DNA from: Eledone cirrhosa
Lineage: Eukaryota
Direction of reading: 5' to 3'
DNA length: 64,000 nucleotides
Assembly (NCBI GenBank): GCA_964016885.1
Contig: OZ024751.1
Location: 3,658,001 to 3,722,000 of the forward strand
The notes under the pieces: generated by a model
The model's input: the letters and a program-made list of their open reading frames with translations, nothing else
Told to the model about the DNA's origin: nothing
Databases searched by the model: none
Translations under genes and position numbers: made by a program
Part shown: one piece after another, positions 2,253 through 34,372 of the stretch
Numbering within the stretch: position 1 is the stretch's first letter
Layout of the letters: the number at the start of each line of letters is the position of its first letter

Positions 2253-2286
<34 letters not shown>

Positions 2287-2289
2287 TGT

Positions 2290-3464: not shown

Positions 3465-3630
3465 TCAGGGAACGTCTTCATGAACCAAAGTATCGTCTTC
3501 CTGTCTTCCTTCGGTTGTAACGTTTTTCGAAATATTTACATTTGCGTTCACAGATTGATTTTTTTTTATGTTTCGGAAGATCCCGTTAAGGGTCGAAGCA
3601 GCGATTCTTTGCTTAAACTCCATTCTGTTC

Positions 3631-3640
<10 letters not shown>
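3465..3640 (+). repeat. Dispersed repeat (other copies about 55815-55985 and 58790-58845), probable Penelope pLTR fragment
   Basis: Shared gaagatcccgttaagggtgaaagcagcgattctttgcttaaac ending at (TA)n. Confidence 0.55.
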
Positions 3641-3715
<75 letters not shown>

Positions 3716-3848
3716 GTGTTTGTGTGTGTGTGTGTAAACGAGCGTTCGTCGCCATTCTCTGTCTCTCTCTCTCTAACTGAATATCGTGTACCCCTCTCTG
3801 TATAACGGCCTATCTCTCTCTCTCTACCTCTCCCTCTCTCTCTTTAGA

Positions 3849-3899
<51 letters not shown>

Positions 3900-3949
3900 T
3901 TATATATATATATATATGTATATATATATGTTTATATATATATATATTG

Positions 3950-5263
3950 TTATAGTTGGGGAGAGTCATATTTGTGTAATAATATTGCCAGAATTAATAA
4001 CAGAACACACTCACTGTTTGGTTGGTTTTCGCTTCTGTGTCTTTTATATCGGTTAATTTAATTTATTCGGTCCTCAATGTTACCATTGACTGACCAACGG
4101 TCAAAAATACAGATATAATATAGACACAAACACATATATATAGTCTAACAAAGTTCTTTCGTTGCACATCTGCAACATCGTCAGTGGTGCTATTATGTTT
4201 TCTCCCGTTCTATAGTATGCCTATGCCATCTTTATTTAGTCTGTTTATTTATTTATTTATTTATTTTTGTCTTCTCTGCGCATGCGTTTGCGTGTATGTG
4301 TAGTGTTTGATGTGTGTTCGTGTTTGGGTGACTGTATTTTGGTTATTGTATTCTATCTTAGTTTATATGTGTTTGTTGTTATTGTGCTTGTGTATGTATT
4401 TATTTATTTATTTATACTTCTCTTAGGTCAGTATTGTTTGTTTGGGTGATGTTGTTATTCCATTCATTTTTTTCTGTTTAGCCTTGGCCTTCTAAGTTCT
4501 ATTTCGCTGGCCTCTCTGATTTGCCTATCTACTGAGTCATTTCTATGTTAAGATATTATTCTAATTTCTATGTTGTCTATGTTACCGTCGCGTTGTTGTC
4601 TGGCATGTTCGTATAGTACTGAACCGTTTTTTCGTCCTTTTAGTTCCCCCCAGTGTTGGTCTATCCTTTCACCTATGCTACGAGCTGTCTCGCCTATGTA
4701 TGTTGTTGTCATGTTTCTGCAAGTACCCTCTGTACATCTTATGCTATAGACTACGTTCCTAGTTTTACAGTTTATCTGGGGGTTTACTTTATATGTAATA
4801 CATTTCCTATTAGTACAGTGGGTTTTCTTAAAAGGGTAGGTTTTGCTGATCAGGGATTTTATGGTGGTTCCTGGCTGTTCTACCACCTTAATCTTTAAGT
4901 GGGTCTTTCTCAGGGCCTTTCTACACTGGTTAGCTAATTTCCCTCCAGGGGTAGAGTCCACAAACATGACACTCTGGTATCTCTGGTTGTCGTACCATAA
5001 GCCGGCTTTCCCTATCTTATGTCTAGTCCTATCTAAGCTATTCCATGATTTGCTCCTGTATAATGGGCAAATTCCTTTCATGTCCAGTTCTATGAGGGTT
5101 TTATACTTCTCCTTGGCTCCTTAATATACTCTGATTCTGTCTCTTTGGTTGTAGCCAGAAAACTGCATGCGGTTGATGAAGTGTTGGATGTGTCTTTCCA
5201 TTTCTGTTGGGTCGCACATGCGGGACACGTTCTTCATCACTCGTACAAAGTCTGCGATCAGAA
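3950..5263 (-). mobile_element. Penelope-like element, 5'-truncated (RT C-terminus, GIY-YIG, pLTR)
   Basis: ORF 4548-5081: YQSVMFVDSTPGG, NVVYSIRC...YIGETARSIGERIDQH; internal stops; degenerate hammerhead about 4146-4190. Confidence 0.85.
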
Positions 5264-14764: not shown

Positions 14765-15309
14765 CCAACTATCTACGAAATACAATATAGTTAGCACCCC
14801 AAATGTATAATTGGGATCATACTCAGGTATATCCTAATGTTTGTTGAGTGAGATGAGAGTTGGTCAGAGTATCGCTAAAAGCTTTCTCTGTTAATGTAAT
14901 AAGTATTTTACTCTTGGATAGCCAGATATGAAAATTCCAGATATTTTGGTATGGCTATCTTTATTTATTCTTTATATGAAATATTGATTGTTTCTTCCTC
15001 TATCTCATATCTGTTATTTTGCCTGAGAAAATACCTCTATGTATATATAAATAATATGTACATATATTTATTTTTTTAATATCCAGTTGAGTTCTTCACA
15101 CGTGGTTAGAATTCCTAACAGGGTTCAATGACCTACGTGTATATTATTTTATGTTTTACGATGTCCTCCTCTTCCCATTTGGGGACAGTGTGAAATTTCT
15201 TCTTGAAGGACTGCTGGACTTTCAAACTTAGCGGTCCTTCTCGCACTGACGGAGACCATCGCTGAATATTAATATCAATGTAGTTTTTTATATTGATATT
15301 GCCTGGGCA

Positions 15310-15431
15310 TCCACTGATGAGTTATAAGAGCCCACTTGCATGGATATCTATCGATTATATGCAAGATTCTACATAACTTGGATATTATTTTCCCACCTTG
15401 TAGAAATCTTATAACGAAACGGTCGTATGGA
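15310..15431 (+). ncRNA. Type I hammerhead with large stem II insertion (pLTR family; homologue at 51545)
   Basis: tcca-CTGATGA-gttataaga...tcttataac-GAAAC-ggtc-GTA-tgga. Confidence 0.7.
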
Positions 15432-15469
15432 AAGAAAGAGAGATTTATTTAATTATGTCTCATATAAAA

Positions 15470-15600
15470 TAATACAACCAACTATCCACGAAATACAATA
15501 TAGTTAGCACCCCAAACGTATAATTGGAATAATACTCATGTATATCCTAATGTTTGTTGAGTGAGATGAGAGTTGGTCAGAGTATCGCTAAAAGCTATTG
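15470..15600 (+). repeat. 3' tail of that pLTR family (copies near 14760, 34190, 35530, 37085, 51847)
   Basis: Shared tacaatatagttagcacccc...cctaatgtttgttgagtgag. Confidence 0.8.
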
Positions 15601-15662
15601 CTATATATATACATATATATATATATATATAACAATAGTAACGAAGGTCGCTGTTATAACTA

Positions 15663-16090
15663 CAGCGTCCCCCGGCCAGTATCTTGCTCACTCAATGAAT
15701 CTGGTGAATTGCAGTAATGCAACTGCAGTCAATTGTTCAGAGTGCACACATTTACTTTACTGTAGACAGTTGGCTGTGTTTAGATAGAGATAGATGTAAA
15801 TATCTCATTTCCTGGACGATCGTTTCTGTGTAATATAACTGTGCAAATGCAGATATTCCCCTGCAATGTTCACAAAATCACGCAGAATCAGCGGATATTT
15901 ACGTAATCGGGCTACTACGCGTCTTCAGCAGGGTTTCCCAAATCATACGATAGTTCCATGCAGTGTGAACCAGCCTTCACTACTGAATGAGCTATCCAGT
16001 TCACGGCAATCCCTCACTCCGCTCCTAATGAAAAGAGGAAGAATTTCTCGCAGACCATAACACGTGATTTTGGCAGTTGAATTCAAACAA
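15663..16090 (-). mobile_element. Decayed Tc1/mariner-like remnant
   Basis: TA|cagcgtcccc end; FSSEGWFTLHG resembles the FSDEAWF.L.G transposase motif. Confidence 0.4.
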
Positions 16091-16123
16091 AAGAATTCGC
16101 GCTAATATAACATATAACATATA

Positions 16124-16154
<31 letters not shown>

Positions 16155-16155
16155 T

Positions 16156-18300
16156 TTGTATATAGCTCCATCCAAATCTGACTTAGGTATAATTAGTGAA
16201 AGCATCCTGGATAGAATCATACCAGTTCTAAAGTTCCGATCTCAACTAAAATTATCGAATGGTACAAATGAGGTTATCGACTGGTTCACTGAACTTCAAA
16301 GTAAATGCAAGACCAAATTTATTCAACTGGATATAGCCAATTACTATTCTTCTATTTCTCCAGCATTACTTAACAAAGCCTTATCATATGCAACAAAATA
16401 TACAGATCTTTCGAGTGATGAAATTAATATTATTCTTATGCTAGAAAGACCCGGAAATTTTGACATTACTGTGGGATCTACACACTCAGCTCAGGTCACA
16501 GACCTCGTTGGAATTTTCATCCTTAATCTAATTCACAGAAGATTACCTGAGCTTGACGGAGGCTTATATCGAGAAGATGCTCTTTTTGTATTAATTAACC
16601 ATAATAATAGCGCCCTTAATAACAAACAAAAATTATAAGTGACTTTTTAAATAATTACGGCCTTAAACTCGAAATTGAAAATAATAATGGAATAGTTAAC
16701 TTCTGGCCTTTACTACTCGTTCCATTAATTAAATGAAAACCTTAATTATGTTAGCTTCCATTCAAACCACCCTAGAAATGTTAAAAGGGTTGTAGTTAAC
16801 AGCGTTCATCAAAGAATCTCTAGACTCTCAGCCAATAAGGAAATTGTTGACAGTAAGGCCAAATACTAAAACGATGCGTTAAATAGAGCAGGTTACTCTG
16901 ATAAAATCGAATATATAGATTAAAATGTTTACATCTCCCTTCCCCGTATATAGATCAACATTCATTTAACATCAATACTAATACATATACATTTCATAAC
17001 AATTGTAATAATGCTGATATTCGTAACTTAAGTCACAGAACTAGGCCAAACCAGTCTTATAATCGATATAACTCCTAAAAAACCAATAAGTCATATAAAA
17101 GGATTCGATCTAGAATCACTAGGAATCAAAAAAATCTTAGCTCACCTTTTCTTCAAAGTTCTTGATAAATGCTTCCCAAAAATATAGTAGAGTTTTTAAC
17201 AGGCATACAATTAAATTCTCATACTCAACCATTAAAAATATTGCCCAAAATATGGCTAAAATTAATAATAGAAATCTCGGAATTAATCATAGAGAGTTAA
17301 CCCCTAATGGTAATCAGAGAATCACTAATAGAATAAATAACTTCTCAGTTAACAACAATTAAACCAATAACATAGACAATGAAAATCTTACGAACTACGA
17401 ACACAGAGTGACATCATTAAATAACAACATAAGTAATTGTAATTGTAAAAATAGTTATTTTTGCCCATTAAGTAATAACTGTCTTGACCGTAATTTAGTT
17501 TATAAATGCATTGTTAAAACAAAAATAAGTTTTATAATTATATTGGTGCTACTTCCTCTAAATTTAAAGAAAGGTGGTACAACCATCGTCACACGTTCAA
17601 AAGAGAAGATTTAGTACAGCTTTATCTGATTTAATTTGGTCGCTTAAAAATAATAATATAGAATATTCTCTTTCTTGTCACAAACTTTCTAATACTTTAC
17701 CTTATAAAAAAATTTCCATTTCAAAGAGTTGTGACCTATGTACCACTGAAATTCTTTACATTCTTAATAGAAAATTAATTATTAATAAACATTCTGAGAT
17801 CTTTAATTCGTGTCTCCACCGATTCTAGAAAACGTTTCATAGAGTTTTTAGTCAAGCTTTATAATAGCTAACAAAATATAGAATATTCCTTCATATATAA
17901 TTTTAATACTTATCTCTACCTATCCTCGAAAATGTTTAGAGTTAAGTTTTATAAAAAAAAAAATAGGTATTATTCCTCTATATATAATTTTCAAGCGATA
18001 TTGTTATCTTTATTTTGATTATATGACAAAATAAGTTAACCAATCTTTCTCCGTTACAATTTTTCATCTACCTTAACTTTAGGTTGTATTTAAATAAATA
18101 AAATTTAATATAAATTGATAAATTAGGCTATAATGTATACATCTTTTCTTTCTAAAATAGTTACACAAAGTATTTATAGTCTCTTCTATTCTTATATTTC
18201 CTACTTAAATAAGATTGTTGAATTGATAAATTTGACCTCGGTAATTATTTCCTTTCTTTTGAACTAAATAATTTACCTCATAGCATTATAACCTTCTCAG

Positions 18301-18380
<80 letters not shown>

Positions 18381-18900
18381 ATTATTATATACTTTTCCAC
18401 TCATATAATTTCAAAATCAAATTATACTTAAAAATAGATAATGTGTAATCCTAATTCTTTCCCCCTTATTTTCATAATTCGTTTCCCTAGAATATTTTTT
18501 CCTTTCTTTTTTTCTTTGATACAATATATATGTTGGGTTTAATAACTACTTTAATTGAATATAAGCAATATATAAACTGAATAACGGTCAATTTTGTTTT
18601 ACCAATCTACTTGCGTCATATTTTAAATCATTTCTTAAAGCAATTGTAATTATTCTCCCACTCATGTAACCGCCTATGTGTTGAGCTTTTTTCTAATGAT
18701 ATACTTGGTGGCTACTGATCTGTCCAGCTCGTGGCTACCAGCATATCATGAAAAATTATACATCTCATATGTATTGTGTCTGACGAGGACATGTTCTGTT
18801 TTATGTTATACATAAAACTTGCGTCTTGGAAATATATATAATAAAATAAATAGAGATGATGTAAAGTATATATCTTTCGTTTATTACTATTATTATTATT
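16156..18900 (+). mobile_element. Naiad-type Penelope-like element, decayed
   Basis: APSKSDLGIIS, FIQLDIANYYSSI, FDITVGS, GLYREDA (RT); NCNC...CPL...CL...LVYKC and CDLCTTE (GIY-YIG); many frameshifts. Confidence 0.88.
18775..18847 (+). ncRNA. Hammerhead motif in Penelope 3' pLTR
   Basis: CTGACGA-ggac...gtct..GAAA-tatata-TA; stem I imperfect. Confidence 0.55.
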
Positions 18901-18905
18901 ATATT

Positions 18906-19084
18906 TGGAGTGGATTGGCAGTATCGGTAGAGGGTTGGACGCCAAGCATAGAGTTACGGCCCTTGCCATTCTGAGTTCAAATCCCGCCGAGGTTAACTTT
19001 GCCTTTCATCCTTACGGGGTCGATTAAATAAAGTACCAATAATACACTGGGATAATTGCTGGCTTTGTGCCAAAAGTAGAAACA
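18906..19084 (+). mobile_element. tRNA-derived SINE family A, near full length
   Basis: A box tggcagtatcgg, B box gagttcaaatccc, conserved core gcctttcatccttacggggtcga; 14-bp TSD attattattatatt (18892-18905 / 19085-19098). Confidence 0.88.
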
Positions 19085-19104
19085 ATTATTATTATATTAT
19101 ACAT

Positions 19105-19796
19105 AATAATAGCGAACTAAATAGAGTAAAGAAAGTAATTATAGAATTCTTTAAAAATTACGACCTGAAATTAGAAGTAGAAATTAAAAATAAAATAGTT
19201 AATTTTTAGACGTAACCCTTAATTTAAACTCAGGCTTTTATTACCCATTCCATAAACTCAATGAAAACCTACATTATGTTAACTTTTACTCTAATCATCC
19301 TAAAGGTGTTAAAAATGTAATACTCAATAGTGTCCAACAACGAATATCCAGACTTTCTGCTAACAGATCCATTTTTAATAGTAAAGCTGGATATTATAAT
19401 GAAGCGTTACATAAAGCAGGATATAAAAATTAATATTGAATATGTAGAAAAAAATAATATTAATTATGAATACAATATTCATAATAATAATAATAAAAAT
19501 AAAACTAACTGTAAAAATAACAACTTGGAGAATAAATCGGGGAAAAAAATTAGGACTAGATCTATAATTTGGTACGCCCCACCAGCATCTTTAGCTATTA
19601 AAACACCTTCAGCGCATTTATTTTTTAAAGCCTTACCTTAGATAAATATTTCCCTAGATCACATAAGTATTACCCTATCTTCAACAGACACACAGTTAAA
19701 CTTTCTTATTCAACAACTATGAATATTGCTCAAAATATTGCAAAAATTAATAGCAAAATTCTTAATTTGAACCAGCATATAATTAGCGATAATAAC

Positions 19797-19862
<66 letters not shown>
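19105..19862 (+). mobile_element. Naiad-type Penelope element, 5' part (RT thumb to poly-Asn linker)
   Basis: IVNF/LDVTLNL, SNHP, IIWYAPP, FNRHTVKLSYS, MNIAQNIAKIN...NNNN. Confidence 0.85.
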
Positions 19863-19864
<2 letters not shown>

Positions 19865-20125
19865 TTTCTTTATTAACCACAAGGGTTTACATAAAGTAGA
19901 CATTAAGGACAGTGCAGGACAATGCAGGACGGTACAAATGGGCATTTCTGCGTGTAAAAAAAACAAAAACAGAGGATGTAACAAAAATAACAATGAAAAT
20001 AACAATGAAAAATTCCCCAATAGGGGGGAGACTTCGGAGGGACATTTGTGGAGAAAGCCCAGTAAAAAGCCACAATGACCCTGACCACCAAGGCAAGTGC
20101 CCTCTCCCAGTTTTCCACCTTTAGT

Positions 20126-23100
20126 TTACAGATATATACTCAGAGTCGGCCCATTCACTCGGGCCATTCTTGCTTCTCTCACCCATCTTTCAACAAAATG
20201 CTGGGAAGAGAGCACTTCCTTCTCTACTCTGATTTTCCTTTTCAAATGAAATTTGAAAAAGTCAATCAGAGCATCACCGAAGAGGTAAGTGCTCGTCTTC
20301 AGCCCTTTCAAACGTGTCCACCATACTATCTCTTTCGCCATGGCCACCAGACAGATAAAAACTGCCTGCCCATCCCGGCTAAAGGAGGAGGGCGGGGCAA
20401 TCCTCACGATGGACTCAGATGATAGCTGGATCCGTCCTAAACGCGACAGCAGGTGTTCGACATAAACCCACAAGTCAGCAATTTTCGGACACTGGACGAG
20501 TGCGTGCAGGACGGTTTCGTCGCCCTGCGCGCATCTCGGACATGCCCGGCTGACGACACCTCCATGCCTGTAGAGTTTATCCCGAACTGGCAAGGCTCCT
20601 CGGTAGCACTGCCAGGCCAGAGATTTCTGGAAGTTGTCCATAGGCCCCGGCCCGAAAGTTCTTCCGAAGAGATTGGCTAGTTGATTTTCGTCGACGCCTA
20701 GAGTTTCCCCAAGTACGTCGTCGCTCTTCCCCTCCACTAATCCTCTATAGAACGCCGAGGTGGAGTTTCCACCGATCACATTGCCCGATTGGTCGAGGGC
20801 TGTGAGCGCCTGAAAACATTCCAGTCTCCAGGCGCTCCCTCTCGGTCTTCGCTTGACCCAGGACTGCAGCTCCGTCAAGGAAACGAGCTGGGGAAAAACG
20901 CGTCTAGCAAACGGCGACCACACCTGATCACCGTCGAGGAAGAGGTGGAGATGTCGTAGCCTGAGCGCGTGCCTGCGCATCATCAGCCACGGCATGCCCA
21001 GCCCTCCACGTAGCGGGTGTTGACAACAGATGGACCGCCTGACCATCGGAGCACGTCCCTTCCACAAAAAGCGAAAGAGCAAACGCTCCAGCGCAGTCAG
21101 GCGAGGCTTAGGACAAGGTACGACGGTTAGGCGGTAGCAGATGACAGACGCGATGTACGCGTTAGCCACCTCCGCTCGACCTTTCAGGGATAGCTTCCTC
21201 TCCGCCCATTTCTGGGTGAGAGAAGCCACCCTGCTCGTCACCTCGTCCCAGTTTTTGTCCGTCTGGAGGTCCGGACCGAACCAGACCCCTAGCAATTTAA
21301 CCGGTCCGTCCGTCCAGCGCCCGACGACGCTGTTGGACGGCATGGACCTGCCTCTCCAGGTGCCGAGCTGCAGGCCCACCGACTTTTCCTGGTTGATCAT
21401 TGCTCCTGTCACCGCTTCGTATTCTCTTAGTGTAGTGCCGATCGCCTCGATGTGTTTGGCGTTCGACACCACTACGGTGACATCGTCCGCATATGCTGAC
21501 ACGGATCTTCCGCATCCTAGTTCGCGCGGGACTCCCCTCAACGTCTCCAGTTTGTGCAGTAATGGCTCGAGAGTCAATACGTACAAGAGGGACGAGAGGG
21601 GACATCCTTGGCGGACCGAGCGCATGATGTTGAACGGTTCCGACAGGTGACCGTTCACTCTCACCACAGAGCAGATGTCGCTGTGCATGGCAGCGATCCA
21701 GCCTCTGAAGACGGGCCCAAAGCCAGCCGCCCTCAGGACTGCCGCTAGGTAACGATGGTCGACCCTATCGAAAGCTTTCGACTGATCTAAATTGATCAAG
21801 GACCCACCCGTGCCAGGTTCCTTAGCTACCCTCTCTATGATGTATCGCATGAGGTGGAGGTTGTCGTGGATGGATCTGTCGGGAATGGCGCATGTCTGCG
21901 CCTCTCCCACCAGACCACCAACGACAAGCGCCAACCTCTTTGCTAGCACCTTGGCCAAAATCTTGAACTCTGTGTTTAGCAGAGTTATGGGCCGGAAATT
22001 GTCTATGTTATCCCCCTTGTTCGGATCCTTTCTCAGCAGTGCCACCGCTCCTCGGCTCACAGAACTGGGAATTCTCCCGTTCTGTTGCCAGTTGCAGTAG
22101 ACGTCCGCCAAGAGGCCTCCGAACAAGTCTGGCATCTGTACGTAAAGTTCATAGGGCAGACCATCCAAACCAGGCGATTTACCCCTTGTGCAGCCAGTCA
22201 TTGCCTCCCTTACTTCAGCGGCTGTTATCGGCTTTTCGCAACACTTCGCCTCAGTGGCCGAGAGCCGCGGCAGTCCGTCGAGGTAGACAGTAAAGTCCAT
22301 CCCTCTACCCGGCCCCCCGCTGCCCCCGAACAGCTGAGCGAAGTGTCGCTGAAAAGCTTCACACATTTGCCCGGGATCGAGTAGCATGCGCCCGTCGTGG
22401 TCCACCAAAGACCGGATCGTGGCTTTGTTGCCACGACGCGCCTCCGCCACTCGGGCCCATTGAACGGCTTTCGTCCCCTCGTGTCTGAGAGCACGCACCC
22501 TAGCTCTGACAACGCAGCCTTCGTGCTTTGCATTGAAGAATTGGTCAAGGGCCAATTTCGCCGCAAGCACGTCGGTCGCAATGCCTTTGCTAAGCGCCTC
22601 GTCTAATTTTCTAACTAGTTCTCCCTCTGCTCTATTTTTCTCTATTGCTAAAGCCTTACTAAACCTAATCGATTCTATTCTAATCGCTCTTTTCAGAGCA
22701 AACCACCACTTGTTGTTGACGATGGCCCCCGTCAACGCCCGCTTAACTAGTTCGCTAATCCGGTCTCTGTAGGCCTTGCGCGCTGGTAAGGACGCGTTTA
22801 GCTTCCAGTAGCCGGGTCCTCGTCTATGAAGCCTATCTAAGTCAAGCACACAGGTCACGAATTTGTGGTCCGTGTAGCTGACTATCTTGAATTGTGGACA
22901 GCCTATGCTAGACCTATCTATTTCCCTACAAAATACTCTATCTAGATATGATCTGGATGACCCTATGCGGTTTGTCCAAGTCCACATTGGCACATTCGGG
23001 AAATCCAATCGGTACCTGTCAGACAGTTCAAAACGCCTGAGCAGGTTGGTGAGGCTCTTGCACCCTCCACCCCTATCCGCTAATCCCACACAGTCCCAGC

Positions 23101-23545
23101 GTGCATCTAAGATCCCGTTCCAGTCTCCCACTAACACTAAAGAGCGGGACGTTCCAAGAAAGGTCTCCAGACGCCGGAAGAAATCAGGCCGCCCTGCTCC
23201 TGTCGGGGCATAGACGGCCACTAGCCTGAAAGCTTGCCCGTCTCCGCTGGTCACGTCCAGCACCACCAGCTTACCCTCTGGGTCCAGGAAGATGGCCCGT
23301 ATGGCGAGATCCAAACCTCTCCGAAAAAGCACAGCAACTCCTCCACCCGATCCAGGACGGCTGGGAGATGCGTACACATCGTAGCCGCCGAAGATCGGTG
23401 CGAAGGCCCGTGCTTCGGAGATTCTGGTCTCGCTGATGGCCACTACATCTATGTTTAGTGACCTGAGGTCGTTGAGCAGGTGACCCTGCTTCCATGACGA
23501 CCCCAAGCCACGCGCATTTATGCTGCCTATTCTGAGTGAGGTCAT
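20126..23545 (-). CDS. LINE ORF2: APE endonuclease, reverse transcriptase, C-terminal Zn finger (1139 aa)
   Basis: SINARGL, VAVYAP, GDWN, YLDR, TDH; SPGLDG, FRPITLLN, DQSKAFDRV, QGCPLS, YADD; CPRC...HALVQC. Confidence 0.95.
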   Translation of the reverse strand: MTSLRIGSINARGLGSSWKQGHLLNDLRSLNIDVVAISETRISEARAFAPIFGGYDVYASPSRPGSGGGVAVLFRRGLDLAIRAIFLDPEGKLVVLDVTSGDGQAFRLVAVYAPTGAGRPDFFRRLETFLGTSRSLVLVGDWNGILDARWDCVGLADRGGGCKSLTNLLRRFELSDRYRLDFPNVPMWTWTNRIGSSRSYLDRVFCREIDRSSIGCPQFKIVSYTDHKFVTCVLDLDRLHRRGPGYWKLNASLPARKAYRDRISELVKRALTGAIVNNKWWFALKRAIRIESIRFSKALAIEKNRAEGELVRKLDEALSKGIATDVLAAKLALDQFFNAKHEGCVVRARVRALRHEGTKAVQWARVAEARRGNKATIRSLVDHDGRMLLDPGQMCEAFQRHFAQLFGGSGGPGRGMDFTVYLDGLPRLSATEAKCCEKPITAAEVREAMTGCTRGKSPGLDGLPYELYVQMPDLFGGLLADVYCNWQQNGRIPSSVSRGAVALLRKDPNKGDNIDNFRPITLLNTEFKILAKVLAKRLALVVGGLVGEAQTCAIPDRSIHDNLHLMRYIIERVAKEPGTGGSLINLDQSKAFDRVDHRYLAAVLRAAGFGPVFRGWIAAMHSDICSVVRVNGHLSEPFNIMRSVRQGCPLSSLLYVLTLEPLLHKLETLRGVPRELGCGRSVSAYADDVTVVVSNAKHIEAIGTTLREYEAVTGAMINQEKSVGLQLGTWRGRSMPSNSVVGRWTDGPVKLLGVWFGPDLQTDKNWDEVTSRVASLTQKWAERKLSLKGRAEVANAYIASVICYRLTVVPCPKPRLTALERLLFRFLWKGRAPMVRRSICCQHPLRGGLGMPWLMMRRHALRLRHLHLFLDGDQVWSPFARRVFPQLVSLTELQSWVKRRPRGSAWRLECFQALTALDQSGNVIGGNSTSAFYRGLVEGKSDDVLGETLGVDENQLANLFGRTFGPGPMDNFQKSLAWQCYRGALPVRDKLYRHGGVVSRACPRCAQGDETVLHALVQCPKIADLWVYVEHLLSRLGRIQLSSESIVRIAPPSSFSRDGQAVFICLVAMAKEIVWWTRLKGLKTSTYLFGDALIDFFKFHLKRKIRVEKEVLSSQHFVERWVREARMARVNGPTLSIYL

Positions 23546-23580
23546 GTTTAAAATAGAGTGGAAAAGATGGGAAAGACCAC

Positions 23581-25674
23581 TTACCGTACTTTTGGTAGAG
23601 GAGGGATGGTTTTTACATCCCTTTTCACTTGATCGTCTGGTGAAGGGACCGTTGAATCGTCCCTTCGGCTGGTCGTCGGCTCTTCTAAGAGTATGTCTGA
23701 GTATACTCTTCGATTGATGGTTCCTCCTAGGTCCCTGAAATCACCAACTGCGTTGGGGAATTTCGTTTTAATGTTTGTGTATTGTTTCTGTGCTATTTTT
23801 AGCAGTCTTATGTTAGTTGGCGTTTTGATTGGTGCTGGTATTATGTAGTCCTGTTGTGAAATGTCTGTGTGTTCAATTATGTAAGTCATTAGTTTCTTGT
23901 TGTGTGTATTTATTGCCGTGCATTTGTTTTTCTGGGGGTGGGGTGTGGTCCTGCTATTTTCTTGTCGTTGTTGCTGGGTGTGTGTGTTTTGTTGTTGTGT
24001 TTGCGATGTTGGTGCTTGTGGTGGTGGTGTTGAAGGTGTTGTTGGCGGTGGGGTTGTCGCCGGTGGTGATGGTGGTGCTAGTGTGGGTGGTGATGGTGTT
24101 GGTGTTGTTGCTGCTGTGGATCTCTTTGCAGTAGACTTTACCCTTTTCTCATTTCTTTCCTCCCTTTTCAAAGGCGACGATGCGCTGCTTCTGCGTTTGT
24201 GCCTTCTTGCGACCTTTTGCCATCCCTCTCCCACCTCACACTCCATGTCTGATTCTGTGAGGTCGGGGAGGGGTACCAGCTCCACTCTTTCACTTGTTGT
24301 TGTTGGTGATGTTTGCACTGGAGTCTCTGTTGCAGCTGCATTTGGTATTGCTGTTGTTGTTGTTAATATTTCCACTGCTGCTGCTGTTTTTGATTTCCGT
24401 GGCGTGGGTATGGGTGCCACGGACCTATCGTTCCTGGTTGCCGCTTGTCCTGTTGCTGGTAGCCGTGGAGCCGGATTCGGAAGGAGGGGGGTTTTCTCCT
24501 TTCTCAGGGTCTTCTCGTTGCAGAAGGCCCTGAGGTGAGTCTTCGATCCACAGCGAAAGCATTTCGGGCGTTTGCCCTCAACACTTATGGGCAGTTGAGT
24601 GCCGTTATCGAAGTCTATCACATCCGGGATAGCTTCGATGCACTCCTGGTTGGTTTGGATTAGCATCTCAATGGAGGAGCCGACCCAATCTTCTCTTACT
24701 TTTTTCTGTACTTGCAGTACAGTTGTTTTGTCCTCGATTCCGACGAGGACAGACGCGGCCAGCCAAGAAGGGGTCATTCCGGGGGGGACGTGGGTCAGTT
24801 TGACCCTCACAATTTTTTGCCCGCAGTAGGAGGGCACCAACACCATTTCTTCGCTCCTTAGGGTCACTACTGATTGGGCCTTTGCCTCCTGGGGTGTGGC
24901 AAAAAGTACGTCTACGGTGGCGTATTTTTTGCCTCGGGTGATGTGCGTTTTCCTCTGCCACACAGACCCCAAGGCTTTTTGTATTTGGGCCTCTGTGGCT
25001 CTTTCCACCCTACGGGATTTTGTACTTACTGTACGGTACGTGACCGTACAGCGCTCTTGGGTTTCGAAAAAATCTTTCGCTGCCTTGCAGATTGCTCGGT
25101 GTCCGTTCTTTGTCACCATCTTCTTCGCTTCCTCTAATTCCTCATTTGTTATGAGGATTGTTTCCAAGTTTTTCGCAATACCTGCAAATGAGATTGGTTT
25201 TTCTCTGCTGTTGTTGTTGTCGTCAGAGCTGCTGGTACTTTTGTTGCTGCAGGTACTACGACTACTGCCTCCGCCGCTGTTGCTGTGGTTGTTGTTGGTG
25301 TTGCTGCTGCTAATGCTGTTGTTGTTTATGCTGCTGGTGATGCTGTTGCGGCTGCTACTGTTGTTTTCATTGTCACTGTTGCTGTTGTTATTACGGCTGC
25401 TACTGCTATTATTCCTGACGTCAGACGAATGAACTGGGTTTTCGTATTTCCCGCACACCTGTTTCGTCGCTGTCGTCGTCGTCGTGGAGAAACCTTGCAC
25501 GCTTTGCACGAGACTTTTCTTTTCTTTCGTCGCTTGCGAAAGAGAAGGGAGGGAGAGAGACACATTTAAAGAAGGGAGGGAGAGAGACAATCTTCTCTCT
25601 GCTGTAGTGATGATTGAGGAAGAAGAAGACGGAATGAGTGGGAGTGACGTATGAAATTTCTTTTTGGTAGCCAT
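23581..25674 (-). CDS. LINE ORF1 gag-like protein with CCHC knuckle
   Basis: Open frame from ATG 25674 (MATKKK); CFRCGSKTHLRAFC; 35-nt spacer to ORF2. Confidence 0.88.
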   Translation of the reverse strand: MATKKKFHTSLPLIPSSSSSIITTAERRLSLSLPSLNVSLSLPSLSQATKEKKSLVQSVQGFSTTTTTATKQVCGKYENPVHSSDVRNNSSSSRNNNSNSDNENNSSSRNSITSSINNNSISSSNTNNNHSNSGGGSSRSTCSNKSTSSSDDNNNSREKPISFAGIAKNLETILITNEELEEAKKMVTKNGHRAICKAAKDFFETQERCTVTYRTVSTKSRRVERATEAQIQKALGSVWQRKTHITRGKKYATVDVLFATPQEAKAQSVVTLRSEEMVLVPSYCGQKIVRVKLTHVPPGMTPSWLAASVLVGIEDKTTVLQVQKKVREDWVGSSIEMLIQTNQECIEAIPDVIDFDNGTQLPISVEGKRPKCFRCGSKTHLRAFCNEKTLRKEKTPLLPNPAPRLPATGQAATRNDRSVAPIPTPRKSKTAAAVEILTTTTAIPNAAATETPVQTSPTTTSERVELVPLPDLTESDMECEVGEGWQKVARRHKRRSSASSPLKREERNEKRVKSTAKRSTAATTPTPSPPTLAPPSPPATTPPPTTPSTPPPQAPTSQTQQQNTHTQQQRQENSRTTPHPQKNKCTAINTHNKKLMTYIIEHTDISQQDYIIPAPIKTPTNIRLLKIAQKQYTNIKTKFPNAVGDFRDLGGTINRRVYSDILLEEPTTSRRDDSTVPSPDDQVKRDVKTIPPLPKVR

Positions 25675-25910
25675 GTTTTTTTGTTTAAAATGAAATTTTG
25701 AGTACAAAACCCCAATAACTGGTTATTTAACCCCGAAGGGCCAAATAACGGACAGAAAGACCCCTCTCACGAGGAGGAGGATGTCTTTATCAACAATTTG
25801 GTTCAAGTTTTAAACAATTTACAATTGTTTTAACGGTTAAAAATTACTATACCTTACAGAGCCGAGCCTCCGTCAACCATGGCATTCAATAATAATAATA
25901 ATAATAATAA

Positions 25911-28900
25911 CTGTGTGTTTGTTTGTTTATGTGTGTTCGTATACAGCGTGGTGATAATGCCACACAAGGGCCAAGTGGAACGGCGAATCCACAGATGGCT
26001 ATGTAACCATACATTCGCCAATCCTCGATAAGAGTGTTTAAATATCGAACATAAACAGTTCGAATAACGGTGAAATGGAGACTAGAACGTCATGTGACAG
26101 ACTCTCACCCAACAGGTGCCCCCTGGCTCAGCAGCAGGAACCTGACTGTCAACCAAATACTGCTGATGTTGGAGGAAGAAGAAGAAGGAAAGGGGCCAGA
26201 ACCAACTGGACGAAAGAATTGAATAGAACTGTTATGCAATGTTACCTGAAAAGTAACCCCAAGGAGAGGGGCTACAGGAGACGGATGCATAACATCTGGA
26301 ACGAGATTGGTCTATTTAAATTAGATGAACAAAAATTGGCCGGGCAGGCTCGGGTAATAAGAACTAATGGGTGGATAAGCGAGCTGGAACTGGAGGAACT
26401 GAGCAGAGAGAATGGCTTGGAGATGGCGGGTGTAGTATGCCAGACAAGCGAGCCAGTGGGAAATGAAGGTGAAGAGATCCTGAGAACGGAGGAACCACCC
26501 GAAGCAGACAATGATCTGAATACTGAGATAAATAATACCTGGAACAGAGATACGGCCACTGAGGAGATGAATGCTGACGGGCTAGGACAAGATTCGGTTG
26601 ACATCCTAAATTTAGTGGTAGATGAATTGAACAATGATAGTGGGAGACCTATGAACCTAAGATTTGTAGACAGGAAAAAGTTAACAGAAACAACAGCTAA
26701 GGTAAACAAAGTCATCCCATACCTTGAGGCGAGGAGCCTTCACCAGTGCAACAATATCCTCAAAGCAACAGCAAATACGGTGAGGAAACTACTTGGTATA
26801 AAAGCGAGAGGAAACAACAGACAAGAAAGAGCAGAGCCGTGGTGGAAGAAACGACTGAGTGGTCAAATCGGGGAAATGAGAAATGACATAGGAAAGCTTG
26901 AGTCACTACTGAATGGGACACTAAAAAACATAGGCACTAAAAATAGACTGGAAATAAAGTACAAAACTAGGAGGAAAAAGCTAAATATTATCATAGAGGA
27001 ACTGAAGCAACGCATTGTAGCAAAGAGTGCAAAAATCAGGCGATACGAGAACAGAGTCAGTCAGTATAAACAGAACCGCATGTTCGACAACAACCAGAAG
27101 ATGCTGTTTGGACAGCTTGAGGGGAAAGAAAGAGGCAACGACTTGATCCCTGGGGCGGAGCAAACTAAAACATTCTGGAGAGGAATATGGGAGCAGGATG
27201 TTAGACATAATGTCCAGGCAGGGTGGATTGAGACAGTACAGAGGGAGATCGGTGAGCAGGCACACCAACAAACTGATTTGAGTATCACAGTTGAAACTCT
27301 TAAGGGGCAGGCCAAAAAACTAACCAACTGGAAATCACCAGGCCCAGATGGTGTGCAGGGGTATTGGATTAAAAATTTAACATCCCTCCACCCGAAACTG
27401 ACGGCCATGTTCAATGACTGCTTGGTGTCGGGTGAGGTGCCAGAGTGGTTGACAAAAGGTACCACAGTTCTGATAATGAAAGACCGAATCAAGGGTAATG
27501 ATGTTACCAACTATAAACCTATCACATGTCTGTCCGTAATGTGGAAACTGTTGACGAGTATTGTGTCTGAGGAAATCTACCATCACCTCCACACAAACAA
27601 CTTGTTACCGGACGAACAGAAAGGATGCCGAAAGAAGTCACGTGGTACAAAGGACCAGTTACTTATTGATAAGATGGTAATGGGGAATTGCAGGAGGAGA
27701 CACACTGATCTTGCCATGGGATGGATAGACTACAGAAAGGCATTTGACATGGTGCCTCATTCTTGGATCACCAAAAGCCTGGAGATCTTCAGGGTGGCAG
27801 ATAACATCAGACAGTTGCTGGGCAGGAGTATGGGGTCCTGGGAGACAGAGTTGACATCAACTGGAGTATCCTTGGGAAGCGTGAAGATCAAGAGAGGTAT
27901 CTTCCAGGGAGATAGCCTGTCCCCTCTGTTGTTTGTCCTTGCCCTGATGCCCTTGACCATTATGCTGCGAAAAGTGAGAGCAGGATACAAGTTGGGAAAG
28001 GGAGAGCTTACCATCAATCACCTCCTCTTCATGGACGATCTTAAGCTCTTCGGGAAAAGTGAGAAGGAGTTGGATGTGCTTGTTGACACTGTCCGTATTT
28101 TCAGCAGTGATATATGTATGCAGTTTGGTATTAGTAAATGTGGAGTCATTGTGATGAGGAGGGGTAGGTTGAGCAGAAGTAACGGGATCCAGATACCAAC
28201 AGGTGAGATGATAAAGGAAATTGACTCTGAGGAAGGATACAAGTATTTGGGCGTTCTGGAGGCTGATGGCATAAAGAACAAAAAAATGAAGGAATTGTTA
28301 AGAACTGAATACATTCGGAGAGTAAGGAGCGTATTGAAGTCACACCTGAACAGCAGAAATGCCATAAGCGCAGTAAATTCCAGAGCTGTGTCTATTATTA
28401 GGTACAGTGCGGGAATTCTGAGATGGAATGTTGCTGAACAAAAAGAAATGGATAGGAAGACTAGGAAGCTATTGACTATCTACAACATGTTCCACAAGAG
28501 GAGTGATGTCGATAGACTCTACCTAAGGAGATCTGAGGGTGGAAGAGGTCTTATCAGCATAGAGGACTGTGTTCAGATGGAGAAAAACAACCTATACAAA
28601 TACGTGACCTATAGTAAGGAGCCAATGCTCAGAACTGTACTGAAGGAGGGGACAGTAGGCCAGGGGATGTCCAAGGAGGAAATAACATCAAGGAGGAAGA
28701 GCAGCCTTAAGGGAAAATCCCTTCATAGTACCTTCTTTGAGAAAACTGAATTTAGAGATCCACAGACATGGAACTGGTTGAGAAGAGGAGACCTCAAAAA
28801 GGCTACAGAAGGAATGCTAATGGCTGCGCAGGAGCAGGCCCTCAAAACGAAGTGGTTGAAGCACCATATTTACAAGGAGGAGGCTAGCCCACTGTGCAGG

Positions 28901-29545
28901 ATCTGTGGAGAGAGAGAGGAGACTGTGGCTCACATTGTGTCCGAGTGTAAACACCTAGCCCAGACCCACTATAAGGGCTGGAGACACGATGTGATGGGCA
29001 GCGTGATCCACTGGCACCTGTGCAAAGTAAACAATTTACCACATTCTGAGAAATGGTATGAGCATAGGCCAGAGGCGGTGATGGAGAACAATCAGGTGAA
29101 GGTGCTGTGGGATTTTAGGATACAGACGGACAAAAAAACTGGAACACAATAGACCTGACCTGGTGGTTGTGGACAAAGAAAAAAGATCGTGTCTGATTGT
29201 GGATGTGGCCTGCCATTTCGACACGAGAGTGCAAGAGAAGGAGAGGGAGAAAATTAACCGATACCAGGACCTAAAGTGGGAGGTGAAAATGATTTGGAAC
29301 TGCCATGAAGTCAAAGTGATCCCGATTGTCATAGGCGCACTGGGGACTATCTCCAAAGGTTTCCAGGGATGGTTAAAGAAAATCGGCCCCTTCACGCTTT
29401 TTGGAACGCTTCAAAAGGCATGCTTGCTGGGAACAACAAGAACCCTCCGATACGTCCTGAATATCTGAGGCTGCAGGTAGTGGCTTGATATTCATTCCAA
29501 CGGACTTTCCAGTTAACCAACATCAATGACTGAGATTCAAGGAAT
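25911..29545 (+). mobile_element. R4/Dong-clade non-LTR retrotransposon, apparently full length, in (TAA)n
   Basis: Single RT-RLE ORF; AAT runs at 25888-25910 and 29552-29585. Confidence 0.9.
26075..29468 (+). pseudogene. RT + CCHC + restriction-like endonuclease ORF with one +1 frameshift in the A7 run 29132-29138
   Basis: KSPGPDG, RGTKDQLLIDK, QGDSLSP, HLLFMDD, CRIC...HIVSEC, RHD, then shifted HNRPDLVVVD...D...EREKINRYQDL. Confidence 0.9.
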
Positions 29546-29551
29546 AACAAC

Positions 29552-29580
<29 letters not shown>

Positions 29581-29586
<6 letters not shown>

Positions 29587-29877
29587 CAGTGGTTGTAGGC
29601 GCTCTGGGAATGATACCTAAGGGGGCTAATGATTACTTATCGCAAATCCCAGGAAACCCGCGTATAGGAGAAATACAAAAGATAGTACTAATGGGAACTG
29701 CCCATATACTAAGGAAGATTCTGTCAATATAAGTACATCACAAGTCTAAATACTAAAGATGCATGTGTGAATATGTATGTTCTTTCTTGAACATGGCGGA
29801 TCTTGTTGTCTCTTGAGGTCACTGGTTGTGACTTGGTGATAACTCGTATGAACATAAAGTAAGATAAATGCAACTGT
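29581..29877 (+). mobile_element. 5'-truncated copy of a second R4/Dong family
   Basis: IPVVVGALGMIPK...IQKIVLMGTAHILRKILSI* parallels IPIVIGALGTISK...LQKACLLGTTRTLRYVLNI*; AAT flanks. Confidence 0.85.
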
Positions 29878-30105
29878 AATAATAATAATAATACAGTAAC
29901 TAATGGGAATAGCAATAACAATAGTTTAAATACGTATAATAGTTGAACACCTAGAAATAATAACAATGATAATACGAATACTTTAGGTTATCGAAATAAC
30001 ACGGAATTGAACTGTAACTGTAGAAGGAAATCTGAATGCCCTTTACAAAACAGTTGCCTTAATAAGAATTTAGTATATAAATGTACCATTAAGACAAATA
30101 ATAAT

Positions 30106-30293
30106 TGTTTCTACTTTTGGCACAAGGCCAGCAATTACCCAGTGCATTGCTGGTACTTTATTTTATCGACCCCGTAAGGATGAAAGGCAAAGTTAACCTC
30201 GGCGAGATTTGAACTCAGAATGGCAAGGGCCGTAACTCTATACGTCAAAGCATGGCGTCCGACCCTCTACTGATACTGCCAATCCACCACCAT
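30106..30293 (-). mobile_element. SINE family A, full length, inside the GIY-YIG coding region
   Basis: 19-bp TSD cattaagacaaataataat (30087-30105 / 30294-30312). Confidence 0.92.
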
Positions 30294-31800
30294 CATTAAG
30301 ACAAATAATAATAATACTTATAACTACATTGGTGCCACTTCATCGAACATTAAGTTTCGCTTTTCCAAGCATAAACATTCTTTCTCAAATCCAGATAAAA
30401 AACTTTCTACTTCATTATCACAATTAATATGGTCTTTAAAAGAGAAAACTATTAAATACTCAATTTCTTGGTGTAAACTTAGAAACTCTGAGTCCTATCG
30501 GAACGATTCCATCTCACCAAATTGCAATCTTTGCAATTTAGAAACTCTATTAATTAACAAACTCTATTTAACAAAAAAAAAAAACGAATTATTTGCAAAT
30601 TGTCTCCATAAATCTGGAAAAACATTTCAAGCATCATACAAATTTAGAAAAAAATACTGACTAAGAGGAGAAAAAAATATGGACTATTATTATTAATAAT
30701 TCTTGAATTATTGTTTTTATATAAATAATGTTTTGCCTTACCTTAAAATTGTATATTTAATCTCATGAGGTGATTGTATAATTAATCTCATGAGGTGATA
30801 AGTTCGAATTTTTGAACGGCCATTGTGTAACTAGAACTTTCTGAACTTGCGGTTTAAAATATCTTCTGGCTTTCAAAGCATTTAGATAATATAAATGACC
30901 ACATATGGATTACCTCCCTTTGTTTACATTCTTCGTATATTATTTTCTTTTTATCCAAATGGATTAATAATGTATATTTAACATGATATTAATGGTTATA
31001 GGGAAACTACATATATTATGATATTATGATTTAGTTATGAAATTAGAATCGAAATAGTAATACTTTAATGAGTGAATATAACTACTTATTAAACCTATCA
31101 GTAAATGACAATTGTTTATATTGTAAAATGAATAATTCTGATAATAATTCTAAACATTATATAAAATGCATATACTGATGGTGATATGCGAATATGTTGT
31201 GGTAAATATCCTTATACATATTTATTGTGTGAAAACTTGCTTGATAGGTAAAAATGTTTTTGAATTTTGAATTTTGTAACAAAATATTGAATATATTTAT
31301 TTATTGAATTATGCTTCTGATTAATATAGAAAATATTTTTATATTGTTTCATTTTGATATAATACATTAGTATAATTAGCTCAAACATAACCAAATACAG
31401 AATATATTAAAAATTTCACGGTATTTAATTGGTCGCTTCTGTTTGACTTAATATTTGAAAACAACGGTCACGCGTCGTGTTCCTTTCTTCTTTCATTCTT
31501 TCCATTTTGCGGTTACGTCCTCCCTCTTCTCTCTCTCTTTTTCTTCTATCATATCTTATTTTTTCTGTCTTCTTCTCTCTTCTCGTCTATCTATCTCCCT
31601 CTCTTTATTTCTTCTTACATTTTTCATACCACTCCCCCTTTTTCCTACATCTCGCTCCACATCCTCTTCTTCATCCTATTTAAGTTTATCATGTTATTAT
31701 TTGTGCATATAAATATTGAGATGTGTTGTAATAAATCACTACTAATACTGTAATTGAACCATCAAGAGAGTTGAGGTATGTCATACATCAATTCATATAT

Positions 31801-31859
31801 TTTATCTGATGAGAGCGTACTGAAAAAACACACAGTACCTCCGAAATATATATAATAAA
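31801..31859 (+). ncRNA. Type I hammerhead in Penelope pLTR
   Basis: tttat-CTGATGA-gagcgtactg...cagtacctcc-GAAA-tatata-TA-ataaa. Confidence 0.72.
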
Positions 31860-32006
31860 ACATGTATTTTGATTATGTGAACGTATTCATTTAATAATAT
31901 TTTGAATAATATAACTAACTCCAGAAAACATTACTGTAGAGTGCTTATAATCTATTGTAAAACTATATTCATTGAGTAATCAAAGAATCATATTAATCTT
32001 TGGTAA

Positions 32007-32051
<45 letters not shown>

Positions 32052-32203
32052 TTGTATATATATTTGTATATATATAGTTATATATATATACATATATATA
32101 TATATATACATATGTATATAGATACATATGTATATGTATCTATGTGTTTATATATATATATATATATATACAGATATACATATACGTATATATATGTATA
32201 CAA

Positions 32204-32251
<48 letters not shown>

Positions 32252-32409
32252 CGTTTCTGAATTTATTTAGCAAGATTCTTTATCTGAACTCGTGTGTTGA
32301 AACCGATATTGTTATACTTTGGGAGTGAAAGCAACTGGTGCGTGTGTTTCTTATTAGCAACATGACCCTCCCAAAGTATAACAATATATATATATATATA
32401 TAAATATAA

Positions 32410-32590
32410 TAAGGGTTGACGGACCCACCATATTTATCAATGCCAGTACCGGTTGTATCTCAGCGCACTCAATGGCCAATGTAAGATGCATTACCAGAGT
32501 ATACACATAGTTATTTGCCTCAACACAACACACGTAAAACAAGTGCCTATAAGGTTCCCGAACTCGAGTTTACTCCCTGAATAAACTCCC
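32410..32590. repeat. Dispersed repeat, inverse copy about 56965-57125
   Basis: gttgacggacccaccatatttatcaatgccag matches the reverse complement near 57095-57125. Confidence 0.7.
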
Positions 32591-32740
32591 TGGAAATATA
32601 TATATACATCTACACATGTGTATCCATATATATATATATACATATACACATGTGTATCCATACATATATATATATATATAAATTTTAATTTTTATTATTA
32701 GTTTATATATATATGTTTATATATATATGTTTATATTAAT

Positions 32741-32780
<40 letters not shown>

Positions 32781-32784
<4 letters not shown>

Positions 32785-33365
32785 GGAAAAAATGAAACGA
32801 AATTTCATTTCCCACTCTTAGTACGGCTGTTACTTAAATATAAGTATGTACACAAATATAAGTATGTACACAAATATAAGTATGTACACTTAATACGGGA
32901 TGTTTGTAAACAAACATCCTGTATTAAGCCGTAGTGTCTAGCAACCATCGTTGCTCGGTTGTTCAACACTGACAAAGGAACGCTGTACTAGTTTCAAGCT
33001 TATTAGCTATCGTCAGCAACGTATACCTTCCTGCCAGATTGTTGAACGTATATACTTACCTTATGCATATTATAGGCATAAGGTAAGTATATACGTTCAA
33101 CAATCTGGCAAGAAGGTATACGTTGCTGAAGATAGCTAATAAGCATGAAACTAGTACAGCGTTCCTTTGTCAGTGTTGAACAAACGAGCAACGATGGTTG
33201 CTACACACTACGGCTTAATACGGGATGTTTGTTTACAAACACACCGAGCATTATAATAAATGTTCGGTGAATCCATACGTACATATATATATATGTGTGC
33301 ATGTATGTATATATATATACATACTACTGTGCATCTGTATACATATATGTATGTACGTGTACATA
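32781..33365. mobile_element. Head-to-head inverted dimer of a relative of the 466-bp hammerhead repeat
   Basis: Palindrome centred near 33070; hammerheads at 32980-33022 (-) and 33120-33162 (+); 32781-32850 matches the array 3' end. Confidence 0.85.
33120..33162 (+). ncRNA. Minimal type I hammerhead
   Basis: acgttg-CTGAAGA-tagctaataagcat-GAAAC-ta-GTA-cagcgt; mirror copy has CTGACGA. Confidence 0.8.
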
Positions 33366-33407
33366 TATATATATATATATACATAAATATAAACATATAT
33401 ATATAAA

Positions 33408-33484
<77 letters not shown>

Positions 33485-33616
33485 ATAAATATAAACATAT
33501 ATATATAAACATATAATAAAAATTAAAATTTATATATATATATGTATGGATACACATGTGTATATGTATATATATTTTTTCGGGGAGTTTATTCATTTTT
33601 CCATTAACATTATAAA

Positions 33617-33703
33617 GCGTCTGACGAGCCGCGGATTACAGAGTCGAGATAGATCAATACATATCGAACGTTGAGCCATATCGCGGGCGAAACGCGCGTC
33701 ACC
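33617..33703 (+). ncRNA. Type I hammerhead with palindromic stem III (unrelated pLTR family)
   Basis: CTGACGA-gccgcgg...tcgcgggc-GAAACGCGCGTC; stem I only 2 bp. Confidence 0.6.
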
Positions 33704-33759
33704 AACCAATAAACGTAATGAAGGAGTAAACAATTTTACTTGTAATTTTATTTCACTAT

Positions 33760-34372
33760 ATATATATGTATAGATATATACATGTATATATATATATAAA
33801 TACACATATGTATATATATATACATCTATATATATATGCACATATATAAATATTTATATAAATATATACATATGTATATATATATATATATTTATACATA
33901 TATATATATACATATATATATACATATATATGTATATGTATATACAAATATATACATAAATATATACATATATACGAGTATATATACATATATATATATA
34001 TACATATGTATATATATACATATATACACATATATGCATATATATATATGTATATATATATATATGTATATATATATATAAGTATATATATAAGTATATA
34101 TATATGTATATATGTATATATATATATACATATATATGTTTATATATATGTATATATGTATACATACGTATATTTAATATATCTCATAAAATAATACAGA
34201 CAATTATCCACACAATACAATATAGTTAACACCCCAAACATTTAATTGGGAATATACTGCGGTAGTTCCTAATGTTTGTTGAGTGAGTTTGAAATTGGTC
34301 GGAGTACCAGTAATAGCTTCCTCCGTTTATGTAATTATATATTTATGTATATATCTATAGAATATATGTATA

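Follow-up and report, generated by a model that had tools for sequence, protein, structure and literature searches.

In most insects, molluscs and cnidarians, the target of Dong elements is (TAA)n (PMC7998251, PMC3812793, PMC3774820). Tx1-clade elements are often target-specific, with (TC)n, (TTC)n, (TTCC)n/(TTTC)n and other transposons as recorded targets (PMC4494074, PMC4640811). The members with microsatellite targets include Kibi with (TC)n, Koshi with (TTC)n and the crocodilian Tx1 with (TTCC)n/(TTTC)n, and Xenopus Tx1 targets another transposon (PMC4494074). In Octopus vulgaris, both Dong-R4 and L1-Tx1 families appear in the list of recently active elements (PMC13282606, Table 1). Among the Penelope-like elements (PLEs), Naiads carry their endonuclease at the N-terminus. 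The Hydra clade, on record from Octopus bimaculoides as Hydra-1_Obim, has a C-terminal endonuclease, a CxCX5C finger, CxxC and CxH motifs, no CCHH motif and insertion at (TA)n (PMC8557442). Here we describe a PLE copy that is interrupted by retrotransposons of both LINE (long interspersed nuclear element) types. It lies in a stretch of 64,000 nucleotides from Eledone cirrhosa (GenBank assembly GCA_964016885.1, contig OZ024751.1, positions 3,658,001 to 3,722,000 of the forward strand), which we call the window and in whose numbering all coordinates are given.

The PLE copy is split by 10,015 bp, and the insert consists of three retrotransposons side by side: a Tx1-type LINE on the minus strand, an R4/Dong-like element on the plus strand and the truncated end of a second one, also on the plus strand. 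An earlier note, made by a model from the letters of this DNA, had described these three elements as each bounded by AAT runs, and the coordinates bear this out. AAT adjoins all six ends of the three LINE inserts. The arrangement is probably explained by a decayed Hydra-clade PLE in which an in-frame AAT run of the Asn-rich linker was hit serially by the three LINEs. The features of the locus, including the short interspersed nuclear elements (SINEs) and the parts of the PLE that encode its reverse transcriptase (RT) and endonuclease, are as follows.

16165-17858, plus strand: uninterrupted, decayed PLE paralogue used as the comparison copy, from RT to GIY-YIG; its linker is Asn-rich without an AAT run.
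18906-19085, plus strand: SINE copy immediately upstream of the PLE fragment, with a 14-bp ATT-rich target duplication (18892, 19085).
19099-19796, plus strand: left flank of the 5'-truncated, putative Hydra-clade PLE; it covers the end of the RT, the thumb and the first part of the Asn-rich linker and has three frameshifts, and its motifs were checked visually against Fig. S7 of PMC8557442.
19797-19862, plus strand: (AAT)22, in-frame poly-Asn at the Tx1 3' end, likely mostly the Tx1 (ATT)n tail.
19863-25887, minus strand: full-length Tx1-type LINE, ORF1 and ORF2 (open reading frames) both open, AATAAA just before the tail.
25888-25908, plus strand: (AAT)7 between the 5' ends of Tx1 and the first R4-like element, apparently target-derived.
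25909-29542, plus strand: first R4/Dong-like element, a single ORF from Met 26075 (RT, CCHC finger, RHD) with an end of the restriction-like endonuclease (RLE) type to 29468.
29543-29584, plus strand: AAT AAC AAC (AAT)11, the tail of the first R4-like element and the 5' flank of the second.
29585-29877, plus strand: 3' part of a 5'-truncated RLE-type element that belongs to another family than the first; 48 amino acids; high read depth.
29878-29892, plus strand: (AAT)5, the tail of the second R4-like piece and the resumption of the PLE linker.
29893-30104, plus strand: right flank of the PLE with the remaining Asn-rich linker and the CxCX5C finger; TGA at 29944-29946.
30105-30293, minus strand: second SINE, located in a short AAT run of its own and flanked by a 19-bp target duplication (30087, 30294); net insertion 207 bp.
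30313-30660, plus strand: PLE GIY-YIG endonuclease with CxxC and CxH and without CCHH, stop at 30660; Pfam GIY-YIG E = 0.0043, below the cut-off.
31738-32005, plus strand: high-depth repeat resembling a pseudo-LTR (long terminal repeat), with a hammerhead-like core at 31806-31848, followed by (TA)n; it may be the PLE 3' end.

For the comparison of the flanks the insert was cut out in a script, and the joined left and right flanks were aligned to the paralogue, which lies 2.5 kb upstream. The alignment covered 1253 of 1324 query bases at 59.7% identity (E = 1.6e-73), with the blocks in order across the junction. The two breaks coincide in linker position and in strand, with neither overlap nor gap relative to the paralogue. 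The earlier note had proposed this excision and had named flanks from different Penelope families as its refutation; the flanks are collinear instead. A profile search with 76 amino acids of the left flank (RT thumb) yielded 1513 relatives at E <= 0.001, 150 of which were listed. Pieces of the right flank also match 19 of these 150 at the expected downstream positions. None of the 150 listed thumb relatives is a close family member, the identity being 61% at most. In word-based protein searches there were no hits for the endonuclease (253 candidates) or the RT thumb (20 candidates), which is weak evidence. Among 156 candidates, the in-window paralogue ranked 1st, 3rd, 1st and 2nd for four pieces of the flanks.

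The read comparison drew on two matches among sequencing runs (shares 0.30 and 0.24), from one sample of one study, and four of the five listed runs were used. Read depth is the summed contig depth in run X1 at the listed positions (40 of 2,935 difference rows) and is not a copy number. On this scale the left flank has a depth of 600-4,900 at six listed positions and the right flank of 1,100-2,800 at six of seven. Inside the three inserts the depth is about 99,000-566,000 at the listed positions, with a step between 29860 and 29900. It climbs toward the 3' end in both long LINEs, as expected from 5' truncation.

The reading frame provides less information. According to the earlier note the PLE frame stops at an AAT run at 19790-19862 and resumes at 29878. 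On the left, AAT AAC (AAT)22 at 19791-19862 does read as Asn in the frame of the KLSYST block, but the PLE frame itself is not intact. On the right, (AAT)5 at 29878-29892 encodes Asn in frame with both NCNCRRKSEC (30010) and YNYIG (30319), as the note had stated. By itself such agreement is weak (about one in three per side), because the in-phase joining of two AAT runs is in frame by construction. The GIY-YIG domain is still in frame only because the second SINE and its duplication add up to 207 bp. From the collinearity, the coinciding breaks and the read depths, we consider it highly probable that the flanks belong to a single PLE copy split at an AAT run, i.e. that the elements are nested within one element.

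The earlier note had labelled the host element Naiad-type. We rejected the Naiad clade on the basis of domain order, since the endonuclease is C-terminal here and N-terminal in Naiads (PMC8557442). RT thumb (19203), finger (30010) and GIY-YIG domain (30319) follow one another on the same strand, and the order in the paralogue is identical. The C-terminal GIY-YIG domain gives a weak Pfam hit (E 0.0043), and the CxCX5C linker finger is present as CNCRRKSEC at 30013. The CxxC and CxH motifs around the conserved E and N are found as CNLC at 30523 and CLH near the end, with the stretch that holds the conserved N shortened in this copy. A CCHH motif is absent from the endonuclease, as judged by eye from the translation against the rows of Fig. 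S7. The RWK/DKT region lies outside this copy, which begins within the RT; LRWR and DKT are found in three long relatives (P0008, P0009, P0014). By domain order and motifs, the host PLE is classed as a member of the Hydra clade. Octopus sinensis or A. hians is named on three of ten PLE relatives looked up.

The continuous PLE frame of the earlier note was not found. The left flank shifts frame three times (frame 1 from 19111, frame 0 from 19203, frame 1 from 19543, frame 0 from 19641), a TGA interrupts the right flank at 29944-29946, and the 5' end of the copy falls within the RT. The host PLE copy is a pseudogene: 5'-truncated, with three frameshifts and one stop. Another decayed copy of the same lineage, at 8167-8604 on the minus strand, retains only finger and endonuclease. 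The paralogue starts beside a (TA)n run at 16126-16164. Two Octopus sinensis gene models annotated as 'myb-like protein I' and 'probable serine/threonine-protein kinase' (P0005, P0018) are 51-52% identical to the PLE RT thumb and look like misnamed PLE fragments.

The AAT runs differ in their probable origin. Read in the sense of Tx1, its 3' end consists of AATAAA, six bases and then (ATT)n. (AAT)22 is likely mostly Tx1 tail, because it trails this AATAAA in the Tx1 sense and because the anchor spacing allows only a short run in the host. From anchor to anchor the split linker measures 67 amino acids without any AAT unit, compared with 69 in the paralogue. Asn makes up 20 of 60 amino acids of the paralogue's linker, which contains neither an AAT run nor an insertion. 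(AAT)7, in contrast, lies between two 5' ends and is for this reason not a tail of any element present. It is best read as a descendant of the host's target run, whatever the order of the three insertions. Asn runs of four or more occur in 2 of 30 relatives with a locatable linker, both octopod (O. sinensis XP_029650703.1, N6; A. hians GAB1607445.1, N4), and linker length in 19 closed linkers ranges from 24 to 71 amino acids. The host PLE thus likely had a short coding AAT run, probably of about seven units or fewer. The earlier note had seen a coding microsatellite that serves as target for elements with an apurinic/apyrimidinic endonuclease (APE) as well as for RLE-type elements. Both types do sit in one coding AAT run, but the long poly-Asn is not supported as a host feature. 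Another in-frame AAT run of the same copy (19481-19495, between the thumb and the next conserved block) is unoccupied. Shuffling of the flanks produced a five-unit AAT run in 2 of 2000 trials; this was not used as evidence, because slippage makes such runs without selection.

The minus-strand LINE contains two ORFs. ORF2 (20126-23545, 1139 amino acids from Met) has Pfam matches to Exo_endo_phos, RVT_1 and zf-RVT, and ORF1 (23581-25722, 713 amino acids from stop to stop) has a CCHC knuckle. This is the layout of Tx1 elements, with APE, RT and a C-terminal zinc finger in ORF2 and the knuckle in ORF1. The named families among the 120 listed matches of ORF2 are Xenopus Tx1 (149 kDa protein) and YTX2, at 28% identity, and its nearest named relative is from Argonauta hians (69%). 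By architecture and best hits we assign the LINE to the Tx1 type. Its 3'-end pattern had no matches in metagenome contigs. An alignment search gave 55 loci, all distant (21-33% in long matches, up to 62% in short segments). A search of viral contigs gave no match. None of the 55 distant relatives has an AAT or ATT run of four or more units, a result that is hardly informative for the Tx1 family at hand. No (ATT)n target of a Tx1 element turned up in the literature searched, a search that did not extend to Repbase, Dfam or the supplements of PMC4494074 and PMC13282606. PMC11203168 and bioRxiv 10.64898/2026.07.22.740005 contributed no information on targets.

In the first plus-strand element a single ORF encodes an RT, followed by a CCHC finger and RLE motifs, and both ends of the element lie in (TAA)n, all as in R4/Dong. 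The clade label draws on this architecture and in part on the N-termini of Dong elements. Among its relatives of solved structure R2 proteins come first, before L1, and a protein-atlas search with the ORF gave unnamed RT clusters only. The earlier note had called the element full. It is indeed a near-intact RT-CCHC-RLE element, but with a frameshift at an A7 run (29132-29138). A minority of reads has one base fewer nearby, which may reflect a mutation or a homopolymer error. With respect to an HDV-like (hepatitis delta virus) ribozyme, the 5' fold of the element has a z-score of -1.85, and such a fold cannot show a pseudoknot. The second element is a 293-bp 3' piece on the plus strand, truncated as the note had it, but belongs to a different family with no DNA match to the first; its 48 amino acids are 44% identical to the C-terminus of the first. 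The targeting of (TAA)n by Dong, which the note had taken as established, is confirmed in print, molluscs included (PMC7998251, PMC3812793).

A SINE is present about 213 bp beyond the resumption of the linker, close to the 200 bp given in the earlier note, but it has its own AAT run and 19-bp target duplication. The 3' flank of this SINE starts with ATTAT in eight of the nine copies shown, most of them outside any PLE. Its presence here therefore needs no special landing pad. We regard the SINE as an independent insertion into a different short AAT run. It presumably resembles octopus SINEs.

Three other explanations of the locus can be weighed against serial insertion into a short host run. 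The stronger form of the landing-pad idea assumes an active Hydra family that encodes a poly-Asn AAT run and is hit genome-wide by Dong, an (ATT)n-specific Tx1 and the SINE. It would account for the presence of three LINEs at one run of this copy and of a SINE at another, for the pre-existing run to which (AAT)7 points, for the Asn runs in two octopod relatives and for flanks that are multicopy in the reads up to the run. We consider it unlikely, as the evidence comes from a single locus, the paralogue has neither run nor insertion, the third AAT run of the same copy is empty, the tails alone provide further target after a first insertion and the ATTAT flank of the SINE occurs mostly outside PLEs. 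Alternatively, the active element may have had no AAT run at all. The run would then have arisen by post-mortem slippage from a few Asn codons, or as the tail of the first invader, and the host would have supplied hardly more than an AT-rich nick site. This explanation, which differs from ours just in the timing of the run, is possible although rather doubtful. The decay of the copy, the paralogue without a run and an anchor spacing that fits the paralogue with only about two AAT units (67 vs 69 amino acids) agree with it, whereas (AAT)7 between 5' ends, the N4-N6 runs of the octopod relatives and the wide range of linker lengths (24-71 amino acids) speak against it. Finally, the flanks could stem from different PLE copies or families, joined when LINE copies recombined or when the AAT runs were misassembled. 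PLE fragments of the same lineage are dense here (three in 31 kb) and no single record spans the stretch, but two breaks at one linker point, on one strand and without overlap or gap, together with similar flank depths, make such an origin very improbable.

Several observations nevertheless weigh against a single PLE copy that was hit serially by these LINEs. The paralogue is not the top partner for two of the four flank pieces, and the best comparison copy is just 60% identical. In the right flank, position 30556 has a depth of 8, and 30658-31565 is thinly covered. An empty site was not observed: a joint that skips the insert is absent from the 15 of 3,855 joints listed, and the AAT repeats (19783-19875 and others) are uncovered. 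Tails and target duplications are indistinguishable, so that order and original run length are not readable. The second R4-like element is classed on 48 amino acids, and an (ATT)n target preference of Tx1 would rest on one copy. The read output is dominated by the SINE and the LINEs and carries no weight for or against an empty site. Joints from 19089-19091 to 30099-30101 were considered as empty-site evidence and rejected; they connect the two SINE ends, the short side being 24-38 letters long and the intervening sequence unknown.

Based on the structure of the locus we propose the following course of events for serial insertion into the PLE. The three LINEs would have arrived one after another by target-primed insertion into the AAT run of the host. 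Both R4/Dong-like elements would use the known (TAA)n specificity of their clade. Tx1 would nick the opposite, (ATT)n strand, either by a preference of its family or by a loose AT preference of the APE endonuclease. Each insertion would keep AAT on both sides and add an AAT tail. Since AAT is renewed in this way, the site would stay a target and insertions would pile up. The order is not fixed by the sequence, but Tx1 is likely the youngest, because both of its ORFs are open.

The earlier note had placed the end of the element at 32005, which takes in 1.1 kb beyond the ORF; for this part a link to the PLE is only possible. The hammerhead-like core at 31806-31848 and the (TA)n run from 32006 are separated from the PLE ORF by 1.1 kb of thinly covered, AT-rich DNA. 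An Rfam scan of 15000-34000 gave no hammerhead hit at E <= 1; its 46 matches are all below the gathering scores and nearly all are microRNA models on AT repeats. Hammerhead-like cores followed by AT-rich stems that resemble one another occur on both strands of the window (18780-18834, 31806-31848, 51185-51224, 53333-53368, 53816-53855 and 62306-62349). The search pattern that found them had two doubtful hits as well, and the two cores within the Rfam range were not reported by Rfam. These six cores are likely PLE pseudo-LTRs or retrozymes. The 31738-32001 repeat has a further copy at 53270-53546. It is broken into two oppositely oriented pieces that lie between (TA)n runs, an arrangement resembling the inverted pseudo-LTRs of truncated PLEs.

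Elsewhere in the window, a tandem array at 41941-48311 consists of about 13.7 copies of a 466-bp unit with 99.7-100% identity. An inverted 231-bp piece (41715-41945) and a 72% relative (33077-33364) accompany it. The array may have been amplified very recently, or it may reflect an effect of the assembly. A near-perfect palindrome at 32896-33246, related to the 466-bp unit, has 175-bp arms that are 95% complementary and 1 base apart.

Parts and principle of the locus are already known, and it likely represents ordinary microsatellite targeting at one place. It is a nested insertion at a probably self-renewing microsatellite target, made up of known components within a dead copy. When such junctions are annotated, long AAT runs should be taken as probable LINE tails rather than as host poly-Asn. 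One may further speculate that an octopod Tx1 family homes to (ATT)n and rivals Dong from the opposite strand, and that Asn-coding AAT runs, expanded in the Hydra linkers of octopods, make this PLE lineage a frequent victim of both; we regard this as a tentative idea with the odds against it. If the Tx1 family were (ATT)n-specific, two unrelated endonucleases would converge on one trinucleotide repeat and allow a direct comparison of target recognition by APE and RLE. If Hydra linkers were hit above other AAT runs, coding microsatellites in transposons would have a measurable cost.

Compared with the described systems, the host shares with the Hydra clade the C-terminal GIY-YIG domain, the CxCX5C finger, the CxxC/CxH motifs without CCHH and the thumb and linker blocks, and possibly also (TA)n downstream and a hammerhead-like core nearby. 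It differs in the linker before the finger, which is Asn-rich and about 67 amino acids long, whereas the rows of Fig. S7 show roughly 20-35, as read by eye. The linker of Hydra-1_Obim is short at the same place, so that the host is likely another family; moreover, the host copy is dead and truncated. With Naiads it has in common a PLE structure with GIY-YIG and a CxC-type motif, a record from octopus and a (TA)n bias, but in Naiads the endonuclease is N-terminal to the RT and CCHH is kept. The first R4-like element resembles Dong of B. mori, DongAg and DongBg of Biomphalaria in its single ORF with RT, CCHC and RLE-type end and in (TAA)n at both ends (PMC3812793, PMC7998251). Unlike in those elements, the (TAA)n here lies within the coding linker of another transposon, and one copy is frameshifted while the other is a 293-bp 3' end. 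The minus-strand LINE is like Kibi, Koshi and the crocodilian and Xenopus Tx1 in its two ORFs, its APE-RT-zinc finger order, the microsatellite at both ends and its position inside another transposon. Its repeat, (ATT)n, is not among the Tx1 targets given in the literature consulted, and it is represented by one copy with 28% identity to the Xenopus Tx1 protein.

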